64,000 nucleotides of DNA from Heterodontus francisci (GCF_036365525.1 NC_090379.1:27395790-27459789); one strand, 5' to 3'; shown: positions 10,552 to 49,199, counted from the stretch's first letter. A program made the numbers and translations. Notes: generated from the letters alone by a model not told the origin.

Positions 10552-13500
10552 GGGCAGGCGGTGGCGTAGTGGTATTATCACTGTACTAATAACCCAGAGA
10601 CCCAGGGTATTCCTCTGGGGACATGGGTTCGAATCCCACCACAGCAGAAGGTGGAATTTGAATTTCGTTAATAAATCTGGAATTAAAACTAGTCTAATGA
10701 TGGCCCTGAAACCATTGTCAATTGTTGTAAAAGCCCATCTGGTTCACTAATGTCCTTTAGGGAAGGAAATCTGCTGTCCTTACCTGGTCTGGCCTACATG
10801 TGACTCCAGACCCACAGCAATGCGGTTACCTCTTACATGCCCTCTGAAATGGCCTAGCAAGCCACTCAGTTGTACCTAACCGCTACAAAGTCTATAAAAA
10901 GGAATGAAACCGGACGGACCACCCGGCATCGACCTAGGCACCGGAAACGACAACGGCAAACCCAGCCCTGTCGACCCTGCAAAGTCCTCCTTACTAACAT
11001 CTGGGGGCTTGTGCCAAAGTTGGGAGGGCTGTCCCACAGACTAGTCAAGCAACAGCCTGACATAGTCATACTCACGGAATCATACCTTACAGATAATGTC
11101 CCAGACATTGCCATCACCATCCCTGGGTACGTCCTGTCCCACCGGCAGGACAGACCCAGCAGAGGTGTTGGCACAGTGGTATGCAGTAAGGAGGGAGTTG
11201 CCCTGGGAGTCCTCAACATCGACTCCGGACCCCATGAAGTCTCATGGCATCAGGTCAAACATGGGCAAGGTAACCTACTGATTACCACATACTGCCGTCC
11301 CTCAGCTGATGACTCAGTACTCCTCCATGTTGAACAAGAGTGGCTCGGTAGCACCACTACTGCCTGAGTTGGCAGAGTTCTAAAGGACATGGCTGCTAGA
11401 CTGGGTCTGCGGCAGGTGGTGGGGGAACCAACACGAGGGAAGAACATACTCGACCTCGTCCTCACCAATCTGCCTGCTGCAGATGCATCTGTCCATGACA
11501 GCATTGGTAGGAGTGACCACTGCACAGTCCTTGTGGAGACGAAGTCCCACCTTTACACTGAGGATACCGTCCATCGTGTTGTGTGGCACTATCACCGTGC
11601 TGAATGGGATAGATTTCGAACAGATCTAGCAATGCAAAACTGGGCATCCATGAGGCGCTGTGGGCCATCAGCAGCAGCAGAACTGTACTCAACCACAATC
11701 TGTAACCTCATGGCCCGGCATATCCCCCACTCTACCATTACCACTAAGCCAGGAGACCAACCCTGGTTCAAAGAAGAGTGCAGGAGGGCATGCCAGGAGC
11801 AGCACCAGGCATACCTCAAAATGAGGTGTCAACCTGGTGAAGCTACAACCCAGGACTACTTGCATGCCAAACTGTGTAAGCAGCATGCGATAGACAGAGC
11901 TAAGCTATCCCATAACCAACGGATCAGATCTAAGCTCTGGAGTCCTGCCACATCCAGCCGGAAATGATGGTGGACAATTAAACAACTAACTGGAGGAGGT
12001 GGCCCCACAAATATCCCCATCCTCAATGATGGGGGAGCCCAGCACATCAGTGCGAAAGATAAGGCTGAAGGATTAGCAAAAATTTTCAGCCAGAAGTGCC
12101 GAGTTGATGATCCATCTCGTCCTCCTCCTGAAGTCCCCAGCATCACAGATGCCAGACTTAAACCAATTCGATTCACTCCACGTGATATCAAGAAATGACT
12201 GAAGGCACTGGATACTGCAAAAGCTATGGGCCCTGACAATATTCCGGCAATAGTACTGAAGACCTGTGCTCCAGAACTTGCCGCACCCTGAGCCAAGCTG
12301 TTCCAGTACAGCTACAACACTGGCATCTACCCTGCAAAGAACAAAGAACATAGAAAATTACAGCACAGGAACAGGCCCTTCGGCCCTCCAAGCCTACGCT
12401 GATCCAGATCCTCTATCTAAACCTGTCGCCTATTTTCTAAGGGTCTGTATCTCTTTACTTCCTGCCCATTCATGTATCTGTCTAGATACATCTTAAAAGA
12501 CGCTACCGTGCCCGCGTCTACCACCTCCGCTGGCAACGCATTCCAGGCACCCACCACCCTCTGCGTAAAGAACTTTCCACTCATATCCCCCCTAAACTTT
12601 TCCCCTTTCACTTTGAACTCGTGTCCCCTAGTAATTGAATCCCCCACTCTGGGAAAAAGCTTCTTGCTATCCAACCTGTCTATACCTCTCATGACTTTGT
12701 ACACCTCAATCAGGTCCCCCCTCAACCTCCGTCTTTCTAATGAAAATAATCCTAATCTACTCAACCTCTCTTCATAGCTAGCGCCCTCCATACCAGGCAA
12801 CATCCTGGTGAACCGCCTCTGCACCCTCTCCAAAGCATCCACATCCTTTTGGTAATGCGGCGACCAGAACTGCACGCAGTATTCCAAATGTGGCCGAACC
12901 AAAGTCCTATACAACTGTAACATGACCTGCCAACTCTTGTACTCAATACCCCGTCTGATGAAGGAAAGCATGCCGTATGCCTTCTTGACCACTCTATTGA
13001 ACTGCGTTGCCACCTTCAGGGAACAATGGACCTGAACACCCAAATCTCTCTGTACATCAATTTTCCCCAGGACTTTTCCATTTAATGTGTAGTTCACTCT
13101 TGAATTGGATCTTCCAAAATGCATCACCTCGCATTTGCCCGGATTGAACTCCATCTGCCATTTCTCTGCCCAACTCTCCAGTCTATCTATATTCTGCTGT
13201 ATTCTCTGACAGTCCCCTTCACTATCTGCTACTCCACCAATCTTAGTGTCGTCTGCAAACTTGCTAATCAGACCACCAATACTTTCCTCCAAATCATTTA
13301 TGTATATCACAAACAACAGTGGTCCCAGCACGGATCCCTGTGGAACACCACTGGTGACACGTCTCCATTTTGAGAAACTCCCTTCCACTGCTACTCTCTG
13401 TCTCCTGTTGCCCAGCCAGTTCTTTATCCATCTAGCTAGTACACCTTGGACCCCATGCGCCTTCACTTTCTCCATCAGCCTACCATGGGGAACCTTATCG

Positions 13501-14948
13501 AACGCCTCACTGAAGTCCATGTATATGAGGAAAATTGCCCAGGTATGTCCTGTACACAAAAAGCAAGACAAATCCAACCCGGCCAACTACCGCCCCATTC
13601 GCCTACTCTCAATCATCAGTAAAACGATGGAAGGTGTCATCAACAGTGCCAACAAGCGACACTTGCTTGGCAACAACCTGCTCAGTGACGCTCAGTTTGG
13701 GTTCCGCCAGGGCCACTCAGCTCCTAACCTCATTACAGCCTTGGTTCAAACATGGACAAAAGAGCTGAACTCAAAAGGTGAGGTGAGAGTGACTGCCCTT
13801 GACATCAAAGTAGCATTTGACAGATTATGGCATCAAGGAGCCCTAGCAAAACTGAAGTCAATGGGAATCGGGGGGAAAACCTTCCGCTGGATGGAGTCAT
13901 ACTTAGCACAAAGGAAGATGGTTGTAGTTGTTGGAGGTCAATCATCTGAGTTCCAGGACATCACTGCAGGAGTTCCTCAGGGTAGTGTCCTAGGCCCAAC
14001 CATCTTCAGCTGCTTCATCAATGACCTTCCTTCAATCATAAGGTCAGAAGTGGGGACGTTCGCTAATGATTGCACAATGTTCAGCACCATTCGTGACTCC
14101 TCAGATACTGAAGCAGTCAGTGTAGAAATGCAGCAAGACCTGGACAATATCCAGGCTTGGGCTGATAAGTGGCAAGTAACATTCATACCATACAAGTGCC
14201 AGGCAATGACCATCTTCAACAAGAGAGAAACTAACCATCTCCCCTTGACATTCAACAGCATTACCATCGCTGAATCCCCCACTATCAACATCCTAGGCTA
14301 CCATTGACCAGAAACTGAACTGGAGTAGCCATATAAATACCGTAGCTACAAGAGCAGGTCAGAGGATAGGAATCCTGAGGCAAGTAACTCACCTCCTGAC
14401 TCCCCAATGCCTGTCCACCATCTACAAGGCACAAGTCAGGAGTGTGATGGAATACTCTCCACTTACCTGGATGGGTGCAGCTCCAACAACACTCAAGAAG
14501 CTCGACACCATCCAGGACAAAGCAGCCCGCTTGATTGGCACCCCATCTACAAACATTCACTCCCTCCACCACCGACACACAATGGCAGCAGTGTGTACTA
14601 TCTACAAGATGCACTGCAGCAATGCACTAAGGCTCCTTAGACAGCACCTTTCAAACCCACGACCTCTACCAACTAGAAGGACAAGGGCAGCACATACATG
14701 GGATCACCACCTGCAAGTTCCCCTCCAAGTCACACACCATCCTGACTTGGAACTATATCACCGTTCCTTCACTGTTGCTGGGTCAAAATCCTGGAACTCC
14801 CTTCCTAACAACACTGTGGGGGTCCCACATGGACTGCAGCAGTTCAAGAAGGCAGCTCACTACCACCTTCTCAAGGGCAATTAGGGATGGGCAATTAATG
14901 CTGGCCTGTCCAGCGACGCCCACATCGCATGAATGAATAAAAAAAAAA
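10552..14948 (+). mobile_element. Full-length non-LTR retrotransposon (CR1/L2 group, EN-RT) with a tRNA-derived 5' head; inactivated and interrupted by CR1
   Basis: Pol III A box near 10560-10572 and B box GGTTCGAATCC at 10626-10636. APE motifs NIWGL, LTES, LDLVL, SDH. RT motifs NYRPI, QFGFR, LDIKVAFD, GVPQGSVLGP, FAND. Several in-frame stops and a frameshift near 14300. Tail (ATGA)n plus poly-A. Confidence 0.9.
12337..13524 (-). mobile_element. Young 5'-truncated CR1 LINE with an open RT C-terminal frame
   Basis: Open frame from YMDFSEAFDKV through GVPQGSVLGP and KFADDTK to a stop at 12417. (TTCTATG/TTCTTTG) tail. Splits the host LINE at GIYPA|MRKIAQV. Confidence 0.95.
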
Positions 14949-20137: not shown

Positions 20138-21269
20138 TTCTCTCTGTTTTCTGTCACTCAGCCAATTTTTTATCCATGCTGTTACTGTCCCATTTATTCC
20201 ATAGGCTCTAAGTTTGCAGACTGTTATCCATGTACATCACATCAACACCATTGCCCTCATCAACCGTCTCTGTTACTCATCAATAAATTCAAGCAAGTGT
20301 TAGCTAAACTCTGAGGAAGTGCATTCCAGATCCTAACCATTCACTGTGTTAAAAAAAGTTTTTTCTCAAGTCACCTCTGGTTCTTTTGCTAATCACTTTA
20401 AATCCATGGCCTCTGATTCTTGACCGTCCACCAATAGGAACAGTTTCTCTCTACCTACTTTGTCCAGACCCCTCATGATTTTGAACACCTTTATAAAACT
20501 CCTCTCAAACTTCTCTTCTTAAGGGAGAACAATCCCTGTTTCTCCAGTCTATCCATGTAACTGAAGTCCCTCATCTCTGGAACCATTTTCCTAAATTTTT
20601 TCTGCATCCTTTCGAAAGCCTTCACACCCTTCCTAAAATATGCTGCCCAGAATTGGACACAATACTCTAGTTGAGGCTAAACCAATATTTAATAAAGGTT
20701 CACCATAACGTTGTTGCTTTTGTACACTATGCCTCGATTAATAAAGCCCAGGATCCTGTATGCCTTTTTAATCACTTTCTCGACCTGTCCTGCCACCTTC
20801 AACGATTTGGGCACATATACCCTCTCTGCTCCTACACCAGCTTTAGAATTGTGCCCTTTATTTTGCCCCCCCCCCCGCCCCCCCAACCCCCATCGTTCTT
20901 CCTGTCAAAATGTATTACTTTACACTTCTCTGTATTAAATTTCATCGGCCACATATCCACCCATTCCACCAGCCTGTCAATGTCCTCTTGAAGTTTATAA
21001 CTATCCTCTTCAAAGTTCACAGTACTTCCAAGTTTTGTGTCATCTGCAAATCTTGGAATTGTGTGCTGTACACCTAAGTCTAGGTCATTAATATGTCAAG
21101 AAATGCAGTGGTCCTAGTACCGCCCCTGGGGAATTACAATTTATACCTTCCTCCAGTCCGAAAAACAACCATTCACAAGTACTGTCTGTTTCCTGTCACT
21201 CAGCTAACTTTGTATCCATGCTGCCACTATTCCTTTTATTCCTTGGACATCAACTTTGCTGGCAAGCTT

Positions 21270-21665
21270 TTTTTTTGTTTGTTTGTTTCATGGGATGTGG
21301 GCATCACAGGCAAGGACAGCATTTGTTGCCCATCTCTAATTGCCCTTGACAACTGAATTCAGAGGGCAGTTACGAGTCAATCACATTGCTGTGGGTCTGG
21401 AGTCACATATAGTCCAGACCAGGTAAGGATGGCAGATTTCCTTCCCTAATGCACATTACTGAACCAGATGGGTTTTTACAACTATCAATAGTAGTTTCAT
21501 GGTCACTTTTACTGGACTGGCTTTCAATTCCAGAGTTTAAAAAAAAATAATTGCATTTAAATTCCACCAGCTGCCATGGTGGGATTTGAATTCATGTCCC
21601 CAGAGTATTAGCTTGGGTTGCTGGATTACTAGTCCAGTAACATTACCACTATGCCACCGTCTCCC
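21270..21665 (-). mobile_element. tRNA-headed SINE equal to head plus tail of the 10552-14948 LINE
   Basis: Reverse complement aligns to 10552-10872, then directly to 14871-14940. Confidence 0.85.
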
Positions 21666-22055
21666 AATTAAATGTGGCAAATTATCAAATGCGTTTTGGA
21701 AGTCCATGTACACCACATTAATTGCATTATCCTCATTAACCTTCCCTGTTACCTCACCAAAAAGCTCAAATCAAGTTAGTTAAACATGATTTTCCCTTAA
21801 CAAATCAGTCCTAGCTTTCCTTAATTAATCCACACTTGTCCAAGTTACTGTTAATTTTTTCCCAGATTAGTGTTTCTAAAAGCTTCCCACCCCCGAGGAT
21901 AAACCACCTGGCCTGTAGTTGTTGGCTTTATCCTCACACTTTTGCTCAAAAAACATTGTAACAGTTTCAATTCTCCAGACTTCTGGCACCATCCCTGTAT
22001 CTAGGGAAGATTGGAAGATTATGACCAGCCTTTCTGCAATTTCTACCTTTACTTC

Positions 22056-23712: not shown

Positions 23713-24054
23713 CTTTTATTATTTATATGCCTATAGAAGACTTTTGGATTCTCTTTTATGTTAGCTGCCAGTCTTTTCTCATGCTCTCGCTTTGCTTCTC
23801 TTATTTGCTCGCTTCATTCTATCTGTATATTTTCCTAGTAAACAGCAAGATTCAATGTTCACTAATTAACTAACAGAGGTATCCTACATGGCTCCATCGC
23901 TCTGCTAAGGGGAACAGAGTAAAGACAGATCTAGTAGCCCATAACGAGGCATCAATGAGATACTGTGGGCCATGAAAAGTGGCAGATTTGTATCCTTGTG
24001 GCCTGACACACCCCTCACTCCTACATCATATCAAGCCAGGAGACCAGCCATAGT

Positions 24055-24165
24055 GTATCCGTCTTTCGGATGAGATATTAAATCGAGGCCCCATCTCTTC
24101 TCTCAGGTGGGCATAAAACATCCTGTAACACTTCAAAGAAGAGTAAAGGAGTTCTCCCAGTGTAA
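24055..24165 (+). mobile_element. DeuSINE domain fragment
   Basis: GTCTTTCGGATGAGATATTAAATCGAGGCCCC...; reverse-complement similarity to 62734-62840. Confidence 0.6.
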
Positions 24166-24508
24166 GGTGAATACTTACCATTTGCGTGGTTGGGTACAAT
24201 TACAACAACATTCAAGAAGCTCAAACACCATCCAGGAAAGCAGACCAGTTGATTGGCCCTCCAGGACTCAATATCCACCCTCTTTGCCACTGTGCACTGT
24301 GGATGCAGTATGCATTACCTACAGGATGTACGATAACATCTCACCAAGCTTACTTTGATGGCACCTGTCTTGTACTGCCAAGAAGATAAGAACAGAAATG
24401 TTGAGGGACAATTATGGCTTCCAAGTTCCCCTCTTTGTCATGCAACATTCTGATTTGGGCATATATCATATTTCCTTATTGTTGCCTGGTCAGTACTTTG
24501 GAATTCTT

Positions 24509-36100: not shown

Positions 36101-39100
36101 GTGTGTGGAGTCGGAGGGCATAGGTGAGGTTTTGAATGATTACTTTTCGTCTGTGTTCACTATGGAGAGGGGTGATGTAGGTGTAGTGATCGGGGAGGGG
36201 GATTGTGATATATTTGATCAATTAGCGTTGAAAATGAGGAAGTATTATCTTTATTAGCGGGCTTAAATGTGGATAAATCCCCACGCCCAGATGAGATGTA
36301 TCCCAGGCTGTTATGTGAGGCAAGGGAGGAGATAGCAGGGGCTCTGATGCAAATTTTCAAATCCTCTCTGGCCACAGAAGAGGTACCAGAAGACAGCGAA
36401 TGTGGTACCATTATTCAAGAAGAGTAGCAGGGATAAACCTGGTAATTATAGGCCTGTGAGTCTAACATCAATGGTAGGGAAATTATTGGAAAAAATTCTG
36501 AGGGACAGGATTAATCTCCACTTGGAGAGGCAGGGATTAATCAGGGATAGTCAGCATAGCTTTGTTGGGGGAGATCATGTCTAATAAATTTGATTGAATT
36601 TTTCGAGGAGATGATTAGATGTGTAGATGAGGGTAAAGCAGTTGATGTGTTCTACATGGACTTCAGTAAGGCTTTTGATAAGGTCCCGCATGGGAAATTG
36701 GTTAAGAAGGTAAGAGCCCATGGGATCCAGGGTAATTTGGTAAATTGGATCCAAAATTGGCTTAGTGGCAGGAGGCAGAGGGTAATGGTGGATGGTGGTT
36801 TTTGCGTATGGAGGACTGTGAACAGTGGGGTACCACAGGGATCGGTGCTGGGACCCTTACTGTTTGTAATGTACATTAATGATTTAGACATGAATATAGT
36901 AGGTATGATCAGTAAGTTCGCAGATGATACGAAAATTAGTGGTGTTGTAAATAGTGAGGAGAAAAGCCTTAGATGACAGGACGATATAGATGGGCAGAGC
37001 AGTGTCAGATGGAGTTTAATCCTGAAGTGTGAAATGATGCATTTTGGGAGGGCTAACAAGGCAAGGGAATATACAATGGATGGTAGGACCCTAGGAAGTA
37101 CAGTGGGTCAGAGGGACCTTGGGGTGCTTGTCCATAGATCACTGAAGGCAGCAGTACAGATTGATAAGGTGGTTAGGAAGGCATATGGGATACTTGCCTT
37201 TATTAGCATAGGCATAGAACATAAGAGCAGGGAGGTTATATTAGAGCTGTATAAAACGCTAGTTAGGCCACAGCTGAAGTACTGTGTACAGTTCTGGTCA
37301 CCGCATTATAGGAGGGATGTGATTACACTGGAGAGGGTGCAGAGGAGATTCAGCAGGATGTTGCCTGGGCTGGAGCATTTCAGCTATGAAATGAGACTGG
37401 ATAGGCTGGGGTTATTTTCCTTGGAGCGGAGAAGGCTGAGGGGGGACCTGATTGAGGTATACAAAGTTATGAGAGGCATTGATAGGAAGGAACTTTTTCC
37501 CTTCGCGGAGGGGTCACTAACTAGGGGGCATAGATTTAGGGTAAGGGGCAGGAGGTTTAGAGGGGAGTTGAGGAAAAATCTTTTCATCCAGAGGGTGGCT
37601 AGAATCTGGAACACACTGCCTGGAGGGGTGGTAGAGGCAGGAACTGTCACAACATTTAAGAAGTATTTAGATGAGCACTTGAAACATCATAGCATACAAG
37701 GCTACGGGCCAAGTGCTGGAAAATGGTATTAGATTGTATGGGTGCTTGATGGTCAGCACGGGTGCATTGGACCGAAGGGCCTGTTTGTGTGCTGTAAATT
37801 TCTATGACTCTAAGAGCATTTATTAAGGTGGAGGTTTCAGAAAAAATTAGGAGAGCTTTGAGGTATTGGATCAGGCCATCAGAAAAGAATTTTGATATCA
37901 GGATATTGTGTATTACAAAAGAGAAAGGCAGAAAGAATGGAGAGGCCCAGGCAAAATTATAGGCACTGATGGCAAAACGGTGATTTTGCAACATGGCAAC
38001 CAAACAGTTCGAGTATATTCCTCGTGACTTATTGGCACTGATTATACATTGATAGTCTGAACAAATGATGGACATTGACGATGCACCATGTACTTCGCAT
38101 GCACATATGTCGGATCTTTGCGAGCAACAGATTGTGGCAGATAATGGGCTGACTGAGAGGGGACCAAGTGATCTTGAAGATCCAGATAAGGCCATTTGTC
38201 CCAAAGGTCAACTGCTGAAAATTGAGACTAGTGACATATATGCCAGAAGAGAGTATTAAATGGAGGGAAGCCACCATTATAGGAAGGGCAGGAAAGGCCA
38301 CCGGGAAATACAAACATTGACTGTGCAAGATAAGGGAAGGATATCAGACTTATAGATTGGCAGAAGGAAGTGAAAATGTGGAAGGCCAGAAAACACAGTA
38401 TTAGTTCAGACAGTGGGCCTCAAGATGATCATAGTCCAAGGAAAAGGAAAAACTTGTGAAAGGAAGTCTGGTTGAAGGAGGGACAGGTTGAGTAGTAGTA
38501 GTCCAGAAAGGGATAGGAAATCTAGTAGGGGACGTGGTTTCACTCTAGCAAGGACCAGAGAGCAGGCGAGGAGCACCATAACAAGTAGGAGCCCTTATGA
38601 TAGAGAAGCTGTAGTGGCTACTAACAAGTTAGATGGTAAGTTGATAAAGGATGCCAAGCAAAAAGAGCTTGACCGTTGGAGAGAGTTTGGCAAAATAGAG
38701 GGAGGTGCCAGATAGAGGACAACCAGCATTGTCCCATGGATGGATCTGTACAGAGAAAGTACTTCCCGATGGTACGTATAAACTGAAGGGCCTTCAGACT
38801 TGTAGCTCGGGGATTTGAGGAATGACTAGGCGACCAGGAAGTTAGAGTGGACTCCCCAACAGCAAGAAAAGCAAGTTTGTGGATTTTCTTAGCCCTTTTA
38901 GTGACCCAGTCATGGGAATGTAAGTCCATTGACATCAAAGCAGCATTTTTGCAAGGGGAGAAATTTCAAAGAGAAGTATTTTTAAAGCCACCCAAAAGAA
39001 GCTGGAGATATAGAAGGGAAATTATGGAAGCTAAACAAGTGTTTATGGGCTACATGATGCATCCAGTGTGTGGTATTTTTCAGTTAGGTCCATCCTGCTA

Positions 39101-41339: not shown

Positions 41340-41515
41340 TTTTTTATTTATTCATGGATGTGGGCATTGCTGGCCATGCCAGCATTTATTGCCCATCCCT
41401 AATTGCCCTTGAGAAGGTGGTGGTGAGCTGCCTTCTTGAACTGCTGCAGTCCATGTGGGGTAGGTACACCCACAGTGCTGTTAGGAAGGGAGTTCCTGGA
41501 TTTTGATCCAGCAAC
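41340..41515 (-). mobile_element. 3' fragment of the tRNA-headed LINE family
   Basis: Reverse complement of about 14775-14945. Confidence 0.85.
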
Positions 41516-41886
41516 ATGACCAGTCTGCAAAAGCTACCAGTGAAAGAAAAGACAAAGAAAATTGTATCATTTGCACCCTGACCTTGAATTTGCTTCAATT
41601 GAAAATTTACCAGTAAATGGGGAAAAATAAGAAACACAAAAAATTAAATAATCCTGAATAAAGTCATTATCCATTATCACAGAGGTGCTGGTACCTTGTT
41701 ATAAATCACAGGGAAACATTTTCTTGGAGAAGCCTATTCCTGTGTCATGGGGCTTGAGTTTAATTTGGATCACTGCATTGGAACTTGACTTATTGGGTTG
41801 GCTTTTCTGACTTTTTTTTCCATAATGGCTTTGAATTCTTACTGATTAGCTGTTGTCCATCTCAGCCATTCTCGCCTTTCTTCAGT

Positions 41887-43614: not shown

Positions 43615-46600
43615 AATTGAAGGGAAGTTTAAAAGGTCGAATAGTAACGAGAGAACAGAGGTGCATGGGTAGTGACGGAGCATGCATTAATCAGAGTGAC
43701 AGGAAAGGACAGAGAGTACAAGCACAAGAGTACAGCAGAAATTAGAACCAGAGTAGGTAAAAATGGTAAAAAGTCAAAGCTTAAGGCTCTTTATCTGAAT
43801 GCACATAGCATTTGTAACAAGATAGATGAGCTGACGGCACAGGTAGAAATAAATGAATATGATCTGAAAGCTATCACTGCGACGTGGTTGCAGGATGACC
43901 AAGACCGGAATCTAAATGTTCAAGGATATTCAACATTCCAGAAGAATAGGCAGAAAGGAAAAGGAGGTGGGGTAGCTTTGCTATTAAAGGAACGGATCAG
44001 TGCAGTTGTGAGTAATGATATAGGTGTAATAGATCGTGATGTAGAATCCGTTTGGGTGGAAATAAGGAATAGCAAGGGAAAGAAATCACGGGTGGGAATG
44101 GTTTATAGGCCCCCGAAGAGTAGCCTCTCTAGGACAAGATATAAATCAGGAAATAATGGAGGCGTGTAAGAAAGGCACTTCAATTATCATGGGTGATTTT
44201 AATCTGCATACAGACTGGACAAATAAAATTGGCAAGAGTAGCATGGAAGACAAATTTGTAGAGTGCCTCAGGGATTGTTACTTAGAGCAATATGTTGCAG
44301 AACCTACCCGGGAACAGGCTATTTTAGATTTGGTATTGTGTAATGAGGTAGGACTAATAAGAATTCTCCTAGTTAAGGATCCTTTCGGGGGAAGTGATCA
44401 TAACATGGTTGAATTTCAAATTCAGTTTGAGGGTGAGCAACTCTGGTCTCAAACCAGTGTCTTCACCTTAAACAAGGGCAATTACAGAGGTATGAAGAAA
44501 GAGTTGTCTAAAGCGGACTGGGAAAATAGACTACAGGGGAAGTCGGTGGATGAGCAGTGGCAGACTTTTAAGCAGATATTTCATAACACTCAGCAAACAT
44601 TTATTCCAGTCAGAAGGAAGGACTAGAAGAGAACGATGAACCATCTGCGGATAACAAAAGAAGTTAGAGAGTATCAAATCAAAAGCAAAGGCGTACAATC
44701 TAGTGAAAACGAGTGGTAGGCCAGAGGATTGGGAATTTTTTAGAAACCAGCAGCAGATGACTAAAAAACTAACAGAGGGAGAAAATTGATTGATTGAGAG
44801 TAAATTGGCAAGAAATATAAAAACAAACAGTAAGAGCTTCTATGGGTATATTAAAAGGAAGAGAGTAGCTATAAGTGTGGGACCCTTAGAGGATGAGGAT
44901 GGGGAATTAATATCAGGGAACAGGAAAATGGCAGATAATTTAAACCAATATTCTGCATCAGTCTTCACAGTAGAGGACACTATAAACATCCCAACAATAA
45001 CAGATGAGCAAGGTGTTAATGGGAGGAAGGAACTTGTAACAATCACTATCATGAGGGAAAAGGTGCTGGACAAACTGGGGCTAAAGGCAGACAAGTCGCC
45101 AGGACCTGATGGCCTGCACCCAAGGGTTTTAAAAGAAGTGGCTGCAGAGATAGTGGAGGCATTGGTCGTAATATACCAAAACTCACTTGATTCCGGTAGG
45201 GTACCAGCGAATTGGAAAACCGCTAATGTGACACCCCTATTCAAGAAAGGAGGGAGGCAGAAAGCAGGAAACTATAGACTAGTTAGCTTAACATAAGTCA
45301 GTGGGAAAATGCTTGAGTCGATTATTAAGGAAGAAATAGGAGGACATTTAGAAAAACATAATGCAAACAAACAGAGTCAACATGGTTTTACAAAAGGGAA
45401 ATCATGTTTGTCAAATTTGTTAGAGTTCTTTGAGGATATAACAAGCAGAGTGGATAAAGGTGAACCAGTAGATGTAGTGTATTTGGAATTTCAGAAGGCG
45501 TTTGATAAGGTGCCACATAATAGGTTATTGCACAAAATAGGAGCTCAGGGTATTGGGGGTAATGTGTTGACATGGATTGAGGATTGGCTAACACACAGAA
45601 GACAGAGAGTCGGGATCAATGGGTCTTTTTCAGGTTGGAAAGCCGTAACTAGTGGGGTGCCACAACGATCGGTCCTAGGGCTTCAACTATTTACTATCTA
45701 CATTAATGACTTAGAGGAAGGGACAGAGTGTAGTGTATCCAAATTTGCTGGCGATACAAAAATAAGTGGGAAGGTATGTAGTGATGAGGACACAAAAAAT
45801 CTGCAAAGGGATATAGATAGGTTAAGTGAATGGGCAAAAACTTGGCAGATGGTGTTCAATGTGGGAAAGTGTGAGGTCATCCACTTTGGTAGGAAGAGTA
45901 AAAAGGCAGATTATTATTTCGATGGTGAAAGATTACAAAATACTGTAGTACAGAGGGATCTGGGTGTTCTTGTGCAGGAAACACAAGGTTCGCATGCAGG
46001 TGCAGCAAGTAATTAGGAAGGCAAATGGAATTTTGGCCTTTATTGCTAGGGGGTTAGTGTTTAAAAATAGAGAAGTCCTGTTACAACTGCACAGGGTGTT
46101 GGTGAGGCCACACCTGGAGTATTGCGTACAGTTTTGGTCCCTGTATTTAAAGAAGGATATACTAGCATTGGAGGCAGTTCAGAAAAGGTTCACTAGTCTG
46201 ATTCCTGGGATGAAGGGACTCTCTTATCAAGAACGGCTAAACCAGTTAGGCCTTTATTCATTGGAGTTTAGAAGAATGAGAGGTGATCTTAGAGACATAA
46301 GATTTTAAGGGGGCTCAACAGGGTAGGTGTTGAGAAGATGTTTCCACTAGTGGGGGAATCTTGAACTAGGGGACATAATTACAGAATAAGAGGGCACACA
46401 TTTAAAACTGAGATGCGAAGGAATTTCGTCTGAGGGTGGTGAATCTCTGGAATTCTCTGCCTCAGAGTTGTGGAGGCTAGGTCACTAAATGTATTTAAGG
46501 AGGAGGTAGATAGATTTTTGAAATCTCGGAGTCGAGGGTTAGGCAGAGCAGGCCCGAAAGAGTTGAGGCCTGGGACAGATCAACCATGATCTTGCTGAAT

Positions 46601-48274: not shown

Positions 48275-48565
48275 TAGTCATTCCATGGTCACTCTGATTA
48301 ATACTGGCTTTTTAATTCCATAATTTTTATTTGACTGAATTTAAATTCCCCAGCTGCTATGCTGAGAGTTGAACCCTTGTCTCAAGATCATTAGTGCAGG
48401 CCGCTGGATCGCTAGTCCAGTAACATAACCACCATGCTACCATATGCACACTTAAATTCAAATTTCACTATCTGCTATGGTGAGATTTGAACCCATGTCC
48501 CCAGAACATTGGTCTGGGCCTCTGGATTACTAGTCCAATGACATTACCACTAAGCCACCTCCCCC
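48275..48565 (-). mobile_element. Two tandem tRNA-head fragments of the LINE/SINE family
   Basis: Both match the reverse complement of 10552-10710. Confidence 0.75.
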
Positions 48566-49199
48566 TGTAATCTCCTCACCATAATGCCTCTGTGAAGTGC
48601 CTTTGGATGATTTATTACATAAAAGGTGCTAGATAAGTAAGTTGTGTTGAAGCACCATATTCACTCTTCCTGCTGAGAATTTCTTCCCCAGCCACTTCCA
48701 ACACCTGCTCCAGTCAGAATGCACCTCTCCTTAAGAGGTGCTGGCTTGCTTTAATTAATGCTAGCCTCGCATGAACTTAGGCCCCCTGCTGAGGCTTGCA
48801 GCCATTCAATAGTGCATTTCGCGCTAGGCTGCATGCTACTCGCAACTCCTCAGATACTGAAGCAGTCCGTGTCCATATGTAGCAAGACCTGGACAAAATT
48901 CAGGCTTAGGTTGATAAGTGGCAAGTAACATACACACCACACAAGTGCCAGGCTATGATTGTGAACGATTGCTATCCTGACGTCACACAGCCCAACTGGC
49001 CAATGGAATGTCAGGATACCAATTTTGGATCCCACAGGTCCAAACACATATTCCCTTGTCACTCTGTCAACAACAAATGTGAAGCTGCAGGATGGGCCTT
49101 TCAATAGCGTTCCTAAAAGGGCCAGGCATCCAAATTGCAGGTAAGGTAATTTTTAAGATTTTCTGATATTGTTAAGTGGCTCGCAGTACTCTGGAGTAT

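Follow-up and report, generated by a model that had tools for sequence, protein, structure and literature searches.

LINEs are ordinarily regarded as protein-coding elements transcribed by Pol II, and Pol III heads as the mark of non-coding SINEs. The locus described here raises the question of whether both can belong to a single mobile unit. It lies in a 64,000-nt stretch of the Heterodontus francisci genome (GCF_036365525.1, NC_090379.1:27395790-27459789), called here the window, with positions counted from its first letter. Between 10552 and 14948, the original prediction placed a LINE lacking ORF1 behind a tRNA-derived Pol III promoter head, being either an autonomous Pol III LINE or a SINE-LINE chimera that propagated as a unit. 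These two descriptions are not exclusive, since one concerns transcription and the other origin.

The element starts at 10552, 10 nt ahead of an A box (TGGCGTAGTGG, 10562-10572), and a B box (GGTTCGAATCC, 10626-10636) is found within a T-arm-like hairpin, so that both predicted boxes are in place. This A and B box pair is the only one in the window, and none of 200 shuffled windows has one. Conservation of the A box columns among 44 copies is 77-95%, being lowest at CpG. The tRNA-like head (10552-10645) is followed by a body or 5'UTR (10646-10870), which is common to a short SINE family and contains upstream ATGs with short frames. Past a stop at 10855-10857, after only about 305 nt of leader, a single frame opens (10858-14884) with a basic leader, an APE endonuclease, an RT and a C-terminal part. 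The 3'UTR and A tail (14885-14948) are also common to the SINE, and 1-9 T are found ahead of the A tail in sister copies. All these features are on the plus strand. As had been predicted, no ORF1 lies between the head and the endonuclease. A match to RVT_1 was found in the 3' part of the window copy, whose frame is broken, and an unbroken stretch of a sister copy has both endonuclease families and RVT_1 (PF03372, PF14529, PF00078) in one frame.

The tRNA derivation of the head was only partly borne out. Besides the two boxes, it has motifs resembling an anticodon arm and a T-arm. However, ARAGORN found no tRNA, and among the Rfam tRNA-clan models a sister head matches tRNA-Sec best, though weakly (E 0.32, 16.9 bits against a threshold of 47). 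A tRNA origin is suggested by boxes and arm-like motifs, with no tRNA model reaching its threshold. The consensus fold of the heads (16 rows, L110 among them on the wrong strand) was uninformative. The initial 369 nt of one sister copy give a better fold than shuffled sequences do (z -2.8). The 5' A and B boxes are those of tRNA-headed SINE2 elements, but a length of 3.29 kb and a selected ORF do not agree with a short and non-coding SINE2; only the companion element described below is of that kind.

The window copy is dead, in agreement with the original prediction. It is 94.6% identical in alignment to the natural copy L101, against which it shows a 75-nt in-frame deletion (11334-11335), a 1,188-nt insertion (12337-13524) and a 2-nt frameshift near 14295. 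Four in-frame stops (11365, 11965, 12196 and 12289) all precede the insert. The deletion is private to this copy and takes out the GDFN region, confirming the proposed cause of the missing motif: GDFN is kept in 40 of 44 other copies, and all of 39 other copies compared have sequence at the site. The insert is a later, 5'-truncated CR1-type LINE on the minus strand; its RT fragment clusters with the CR1-type elements of the host, and the sister copies spanning the site lack the insert.

Could a SINE and a 5'-truncated LINE have come to lie side by side at this locus by chance? The SINE with this head is itself abundant (10,008 candidates), although first-look candidates of our genome searches, here and below, are not copy numbers. 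Searching the host genome with the head-ORF junction gave 2,384 first-look candidates, and the same junction is present in all of the 40 scored (98-100%, window copy included), which are spread over many contigs. The copies examined throughout are best-scoring matches and not a random sample. In the 39 other copies the flanks differ, the start is at most 9 nt from 10552 in 32 and the tail is reached in 34. All 30 loci fetched with the head alone, again with the window copy, run on into the ORF, this query favoring LINE-type heads. Among 30 loci obtained with the endonuclease DNA alone, 20 extend to element position 1-15 and the remaining 10 have lost their 5' part at various points (57-416), two of them with inverted pieces. 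Inverted segments, such as twin priming or a subsequent rearrangement would produce, are seen in copies L262, L277, L087 and L097. The full head is present in 14 of 20 loci obtained with a protein query (20 of its 63 matches, fetched for long frames) and in 25 of 30 more diverged copies (82-93% identity to L101). Many diagnostic sites separate the heads of the LINE from those of the SINE, and in an unrooted tree the SINE heads group on their own. The junction, 39-copy and endonuclease-only searches rule out a chance adjacency, whose probability we take as negligible.

The original prediction would have failed had the junction been unique to this locus, or had full-length copies carried a conventional 5'UTR and ORF1. 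The first is contradicted by the repeated junction with differing flanks, which together with the fixed 5' end indicates that SINE head and LINE body spread as a unit. As for the second, no other shared leader or ORF1 was found at the DNA level across the 30 endonuclease-only loci, whose flanks share only other repeats at varying distances.

The family is about 3.29 kb long, with a mean divergence of 2.7% among 44 copies. Matches of 4-6 nt compatible with target-site duplications were found in 4 of 19 copies, against 6.7% of mismatched pairs, and most copies have none. We assign the family to APE-type LINEs on the basis of its dispersed copies, shared 3' tail, 5' truncation, and endonuclease and RT in one frame. 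The body-ORF junction is bridged by contigs from sequencing runs of the organisms coded B, D, E and G and from one metatranscriptome; the type of these contigs is uncertain ('RNA' being a guess for most) and they carry no RNA start, strand or cap. Read depth climbs toward the 3' end of the element in four sequencing runs. Shark protein models, for example from Heptranchias perlo, contain pieces of the element at 77-85% identity. We conclude that this is a genuine shark LINE family, present in more than one species, in which a SINE-type head is combined with one selected ORF. Two shark protein models, P0002 (aldo-keto reductase) and P0006 (sushi-domain protein), include a stretch of the LINE ORF, which could be either an annotation error or exonisation. 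Further fragments of the LINE/SINE family are present in the window (41340-41516 and 48276-48562 on the minus strand, 48840-48958, 23986-24049 and 24159-24366), namely a 3' tail, two pieces of head and some older stretches of ORF.

Concerning coding capacity, the column majority of 44 copies, six of them 5'-truncated, is one open frame of 975 codons, the intact consensus ORF that the original prediction proposed to look for. Among the copies examined, which are top-scoring matches, none has a stop-free full frame and the best have one stop. For non-CpG variants, pN/pS falls from 0.71 in private variants to 0.43 in those shared by 2 copies, 0.28-0.29 in those shared by 3-9 and 0.10 in those present in at least 10 (4 nonsynonymous, 13 synonymous; Fisher P 1.5e-4). 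The tests of shared against private variants gave Fisher P of 1.5e-4 and 3.5e-7, with shared-variant counts being non-independent events. Since shared variants are mostly synonymous, the element spread as a coding unit. This pattern of substitutions indicates that the 975-codon frame was under purifying selection during the spread and that the protein worked then.

The same data bear on another explanation, in which a SINE head acquired a complete LINE body and the Pol III product was copied in trans by a distinct partner LINE, with the frame never translated. In its favor, RNA made by Pol III carries no cap, the frame lacks a start ATG, no fully intact copy is found among those examined, and the T-run depletion described below would fit as well. 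Nevertheless, a frame that was never translated should not show widely shared variants in a 4:13 ratio of nonsynonymous to synonymous nor a majority open for 975 codons, and no head-less partner with a different leader was found in the 30 endonuclease-only and 20 protein-query loci. We regard such a chimera as improbable.

How translation would start is less ordinary. In a point that the original prediction did not raise, no in-frame ATG occurs before codon 204, which lies beyond the endonuclease core, and the basic leader ahead of the endonuclease looks by eye like those of some relatives; from these two observations we infer a non-AUG start. There are also nine short upstream ATG frames, and an out-of-frame ATG (10904-10906, plus strand), present in 44 of 44 copies, opens an overlapping 46-codon frame. 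The codon 10 ACG was considered as the start, its ACG/ACA/ATG mix being reminiscent of CpG decay; in the young set, however, ACA is in the majority (27 of 44), and we set this weak candidate aside.

The closest relatives of the protein are 40-48% identical across the RT half, and many are proteins of 930-995 residues on contigs of 3.2-4.0 kb, suggesting compact single-ORF elements. The nearest named relatives (35-46%) are from amphioxus, sponge, wrasse and moth. In a quick RT tree, which answers the call for a phylogeny in the original prediction without fixing the clade, the protein sits among these relatives and apart from host RTs that we take, by their motifs, to be CR1-type and RTE-like; deep support is weak. 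The host CR1-type RTs form their own clade with support of 100. With its RT outside the host CR1 group in this tree and ORF1 missing, the family does not look like a member of the vertebrate CR1 clade. L2 and CR1-group elements with a single ORF have been described (PMC7140322, PMC4120745 and PMC6740152, in the parts available to us). Considering them and the compact appearance of the closest relatives, the missing ORF1 is probably not special for this clade. In the closest relative with DNA (L150, 37%), the frame has 20 TTTT runs, and no A and B box pair is found in about 1 kb upstream. A scan of metagenomes gave relatives only 24-41% identical, 59 of 80 with a long frame; no A and B box pair was found upstream in these 59, many of which have little upstream DNA. 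Nothing was found in a scan of viral contigs. Two nearly identical RTE-like RT stretches were observed (L039:1622-2551 and L062:4038-4598), one of them replacing the 3' half of a family copy.

Which polymerase made the RNA can be approached from the distribution of T runs. In the column majority, no run of four or more T is found on the coding strand across 3.29 kb, and 28 natural copies have 12 in 90,992 nt (0.13/kb) against 412 A runs. Eleven other host LINE stretches have 28 in 7,173 nt (3.9/kb), and 58 of the 59 metagenome LINE control frames have five or more TTTT. CR1-type LINE RT fragments of the window (36641-37671 and 45162-46217) were used as T-run controls. The one metagenome control devoid of TTTT, L167, is T-poor and has 401 codons; it ends in (GAA)n, and its 5' end is off the contig. 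The absence of TTTT is not significant on its own (P 0.07-0.08 in codon shuffles, 0.15 in dinucleotide shuffles). For TTT, 5-6 runs are observed against 13-14 expected, none of 3,000 codon shuffles being as low. The host control LINEs match their expectation for TTT; 4 of the 59 metagenome frames show a milder depletion, and that of the family is larger than in all 59. A sense strand free of internal oligo-T is what a type-2 Pol III unit should have, the signal here being of limited strength for T4 and strong for T3. The low Phe content of the protein (2.0%) was discarded as evidence, since it is lower still in an amphioxus relative (1.5%).

The ends of the element were also compared. A cap-derived extra 5' G is known from work on L1. 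The base before the head is G in 8 of 51 full-length copies, no excess over a background of 21%, in a test without a positive control in this genome. It is A in 29 of 51 (background 31%, P 1e-4), which may be either the true first RNA base or an insertion preference. Of 44 matched tails, 20 have 2-9 T ahead of the A stretch and the other 24 a single T, so there is no fixed terminator. An AATAAA is found about 45 nt before the tail.

Taken together, the canonical boxes, the fixed start, the TTTT/TTT depletion, the variable T-run of the tail and the lack of an extra G favor Pol III. This reading is weakened by the P of 0.07-0.15 for the TTTT absence, the tails often without T-run, an AATAAA that would serve Pol II equally and the sub-threshold tRNA score. 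Judging from sequence features, we give somewhat better than even credence to the window copy being a decayed member of a LINE family that was once autonomous, had a single ORF and was likely transcribed by Pol III from the A/B-box head. The alternative is an autonomous LINE transcribed by Pol II, from a promoter in the head or body itself or from host promoters, that uses a SINE-derived head as 5'UTR, with the boxes as passengers and a T-poor strand of compositional origin. Translated RNA normally needs a cap, the TTTT absence alone is not significant and an AATAAA precedes the A tail, all of which agree with Pol II. In addition, LINEs swap 5'UTRs (PMC5753468) and are taken as Pol II units (PMC5786205), according to the parts of these sources available to us. 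Against it, most long copies begin abruptly 10 nt ahead of the A box, a poor fit to read-through from host promoters, the TTT depletion goes beyond codon usage and all 59 controls, nine upstream ATGs without an in-frame one are poor for cap-dependent scanning, and no extra 5' G precedes the head. We therefore consider Pol II transcription rather unlikely, though it deserves serious attention.

Under the preferred Pol III reading, TFIIIC and Pol III would start about 10 nt ahead of the A box, and the avoidance of oligo-T on the coding strand would let the polymerase read through 3.3 kb. The transcript would end at a terminal T-run or in the flank and then be A-tailed. Uncapped, it would be translated from a non-AUG start, the candidates being TTG at codon 5 and ATA at codon 13, perhaps aided by the structured body. 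The encoded protein would then copy its own RNA, and that of the companion SINE, by target-primed reverse transcription. In its strongest form, this describes a self-mobilising coding retrotransposon served by Pol III from end to end, with a 3.3-kb uncapped mRNA, codons evolved to avoid terminators, no start ATG and a SINE derived by loss of the ORF; this full picture we put forward only tentatively.

The companion SINE is represented in the window by a 0.4-kb copy at 21272-21668 (minus strand), with the same head, body and tail, no ORF and about 80% identity, and by at least 30 other loci. It consists of element positions 1 to about 300-320 and the last 85 nt, final ORF codons included, and the same joint is present in four sequencing runs. 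In terms of sequence, the SINE family is the LINE element minus its ORF. Divergence is higher among the SINE copies (8.8%), and their heads share about 80% identity with those of the LINE. The tail of the window SINE directly adjoins a piece of RT from a different LINE (about 20892-21260, minus strand). The SINE may have arisen by deletion from a head-bearing LINE, which is simpler, or a head may have been added to a bipartite derivative and passed later onto the LINE via the shared body, the first step being that of a published model (PMC5786205, in the part available). We tried to name the SINE after known families. A Deu/SacSINE1 label was rejected because the body is unlike, by eye, the Deu alignment in the portion of PMC7245038 examined and the 16-nt Deu motif is absent; the Meta and UCON3 domains of the supplementary alignments of that source gave no match to the body by eye either. 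An LF-SINE label was not supported.

Some known systems share part of this arrangement, the comparisons being limited to the portions of each source at hand. Zenon is a lepidopteran CR1-group LINE and Persaeus its internally deleted derivative (PMC6740152), so that, as here, a LINE is accompanied by a short derivative that retains the 5'UTR, both ends of the ORF, the 3'UTR and poly(A); lepidopteran CR1 may also have a single ORF (PMC6740152). However, in the part of that source available, Persaeus lacks both homology to tRNA and a Pol III promoter, whereas the shark LINE and its derivative both have A and B boxes. Zenon was compared by its description, and a moth protein is among the relatives of the shark element (35%). 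SINE2 elements built on bipartite LINE ends of RTE and Vingi types (PMC5786205) join a head with LINE 5' and 3' parts, exactly as the companion SINE does. In that model, as presented in the sections consulted, the head is on the non-coding derivative only, SINEs cannot encode protein and the autonomous LINE is a Pol II unit, while here the coding element has the head; moreover, the model concerns RTE/Vingi types and the shark RT is not grouped with the host RTE-like stretches. The Deu-SINEs SacSINE1 and LmeSINE1, together with L2-2_CM (PMC5499810), provide a cartilaginous-fish tRNA-headed SINE of about 0.4 kb whose tail is shared with a LINE. In the excerpt available, L2-2_CM shares only the tail with its SINE, whereas the shark LINE shares head, body and tail. 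The tail order of polyadenylated Pol III SINEs such as B2, Dip and Ves (PMC8466645, consulted in part), namely AATAAA, T-run and A tail, is that found here, but these are short and non-coding, and in the shark element the T-run varies and is lacking from more than half of the copies. In the literature searched, no coding LINE with a tRNA-type head was described; Repbase or Dfam may already have an entry for the family.

In this family a selected ORF stands behind a SINE-type head, and the search candidates number in the thousands. Even under Pol II, a head-bearing LINE/SINE pair is an architecture that we did not find in the literature searched. If Pol III makes the RNA, the element would be a natural case of a long mRNA from Pol III, translated independently of a cap and from a non-AUG codon. 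If the reading is true, there would be a direct route from LINE to SINE, and the body of one SINE would have originated as the 5'UTR of a LINE.
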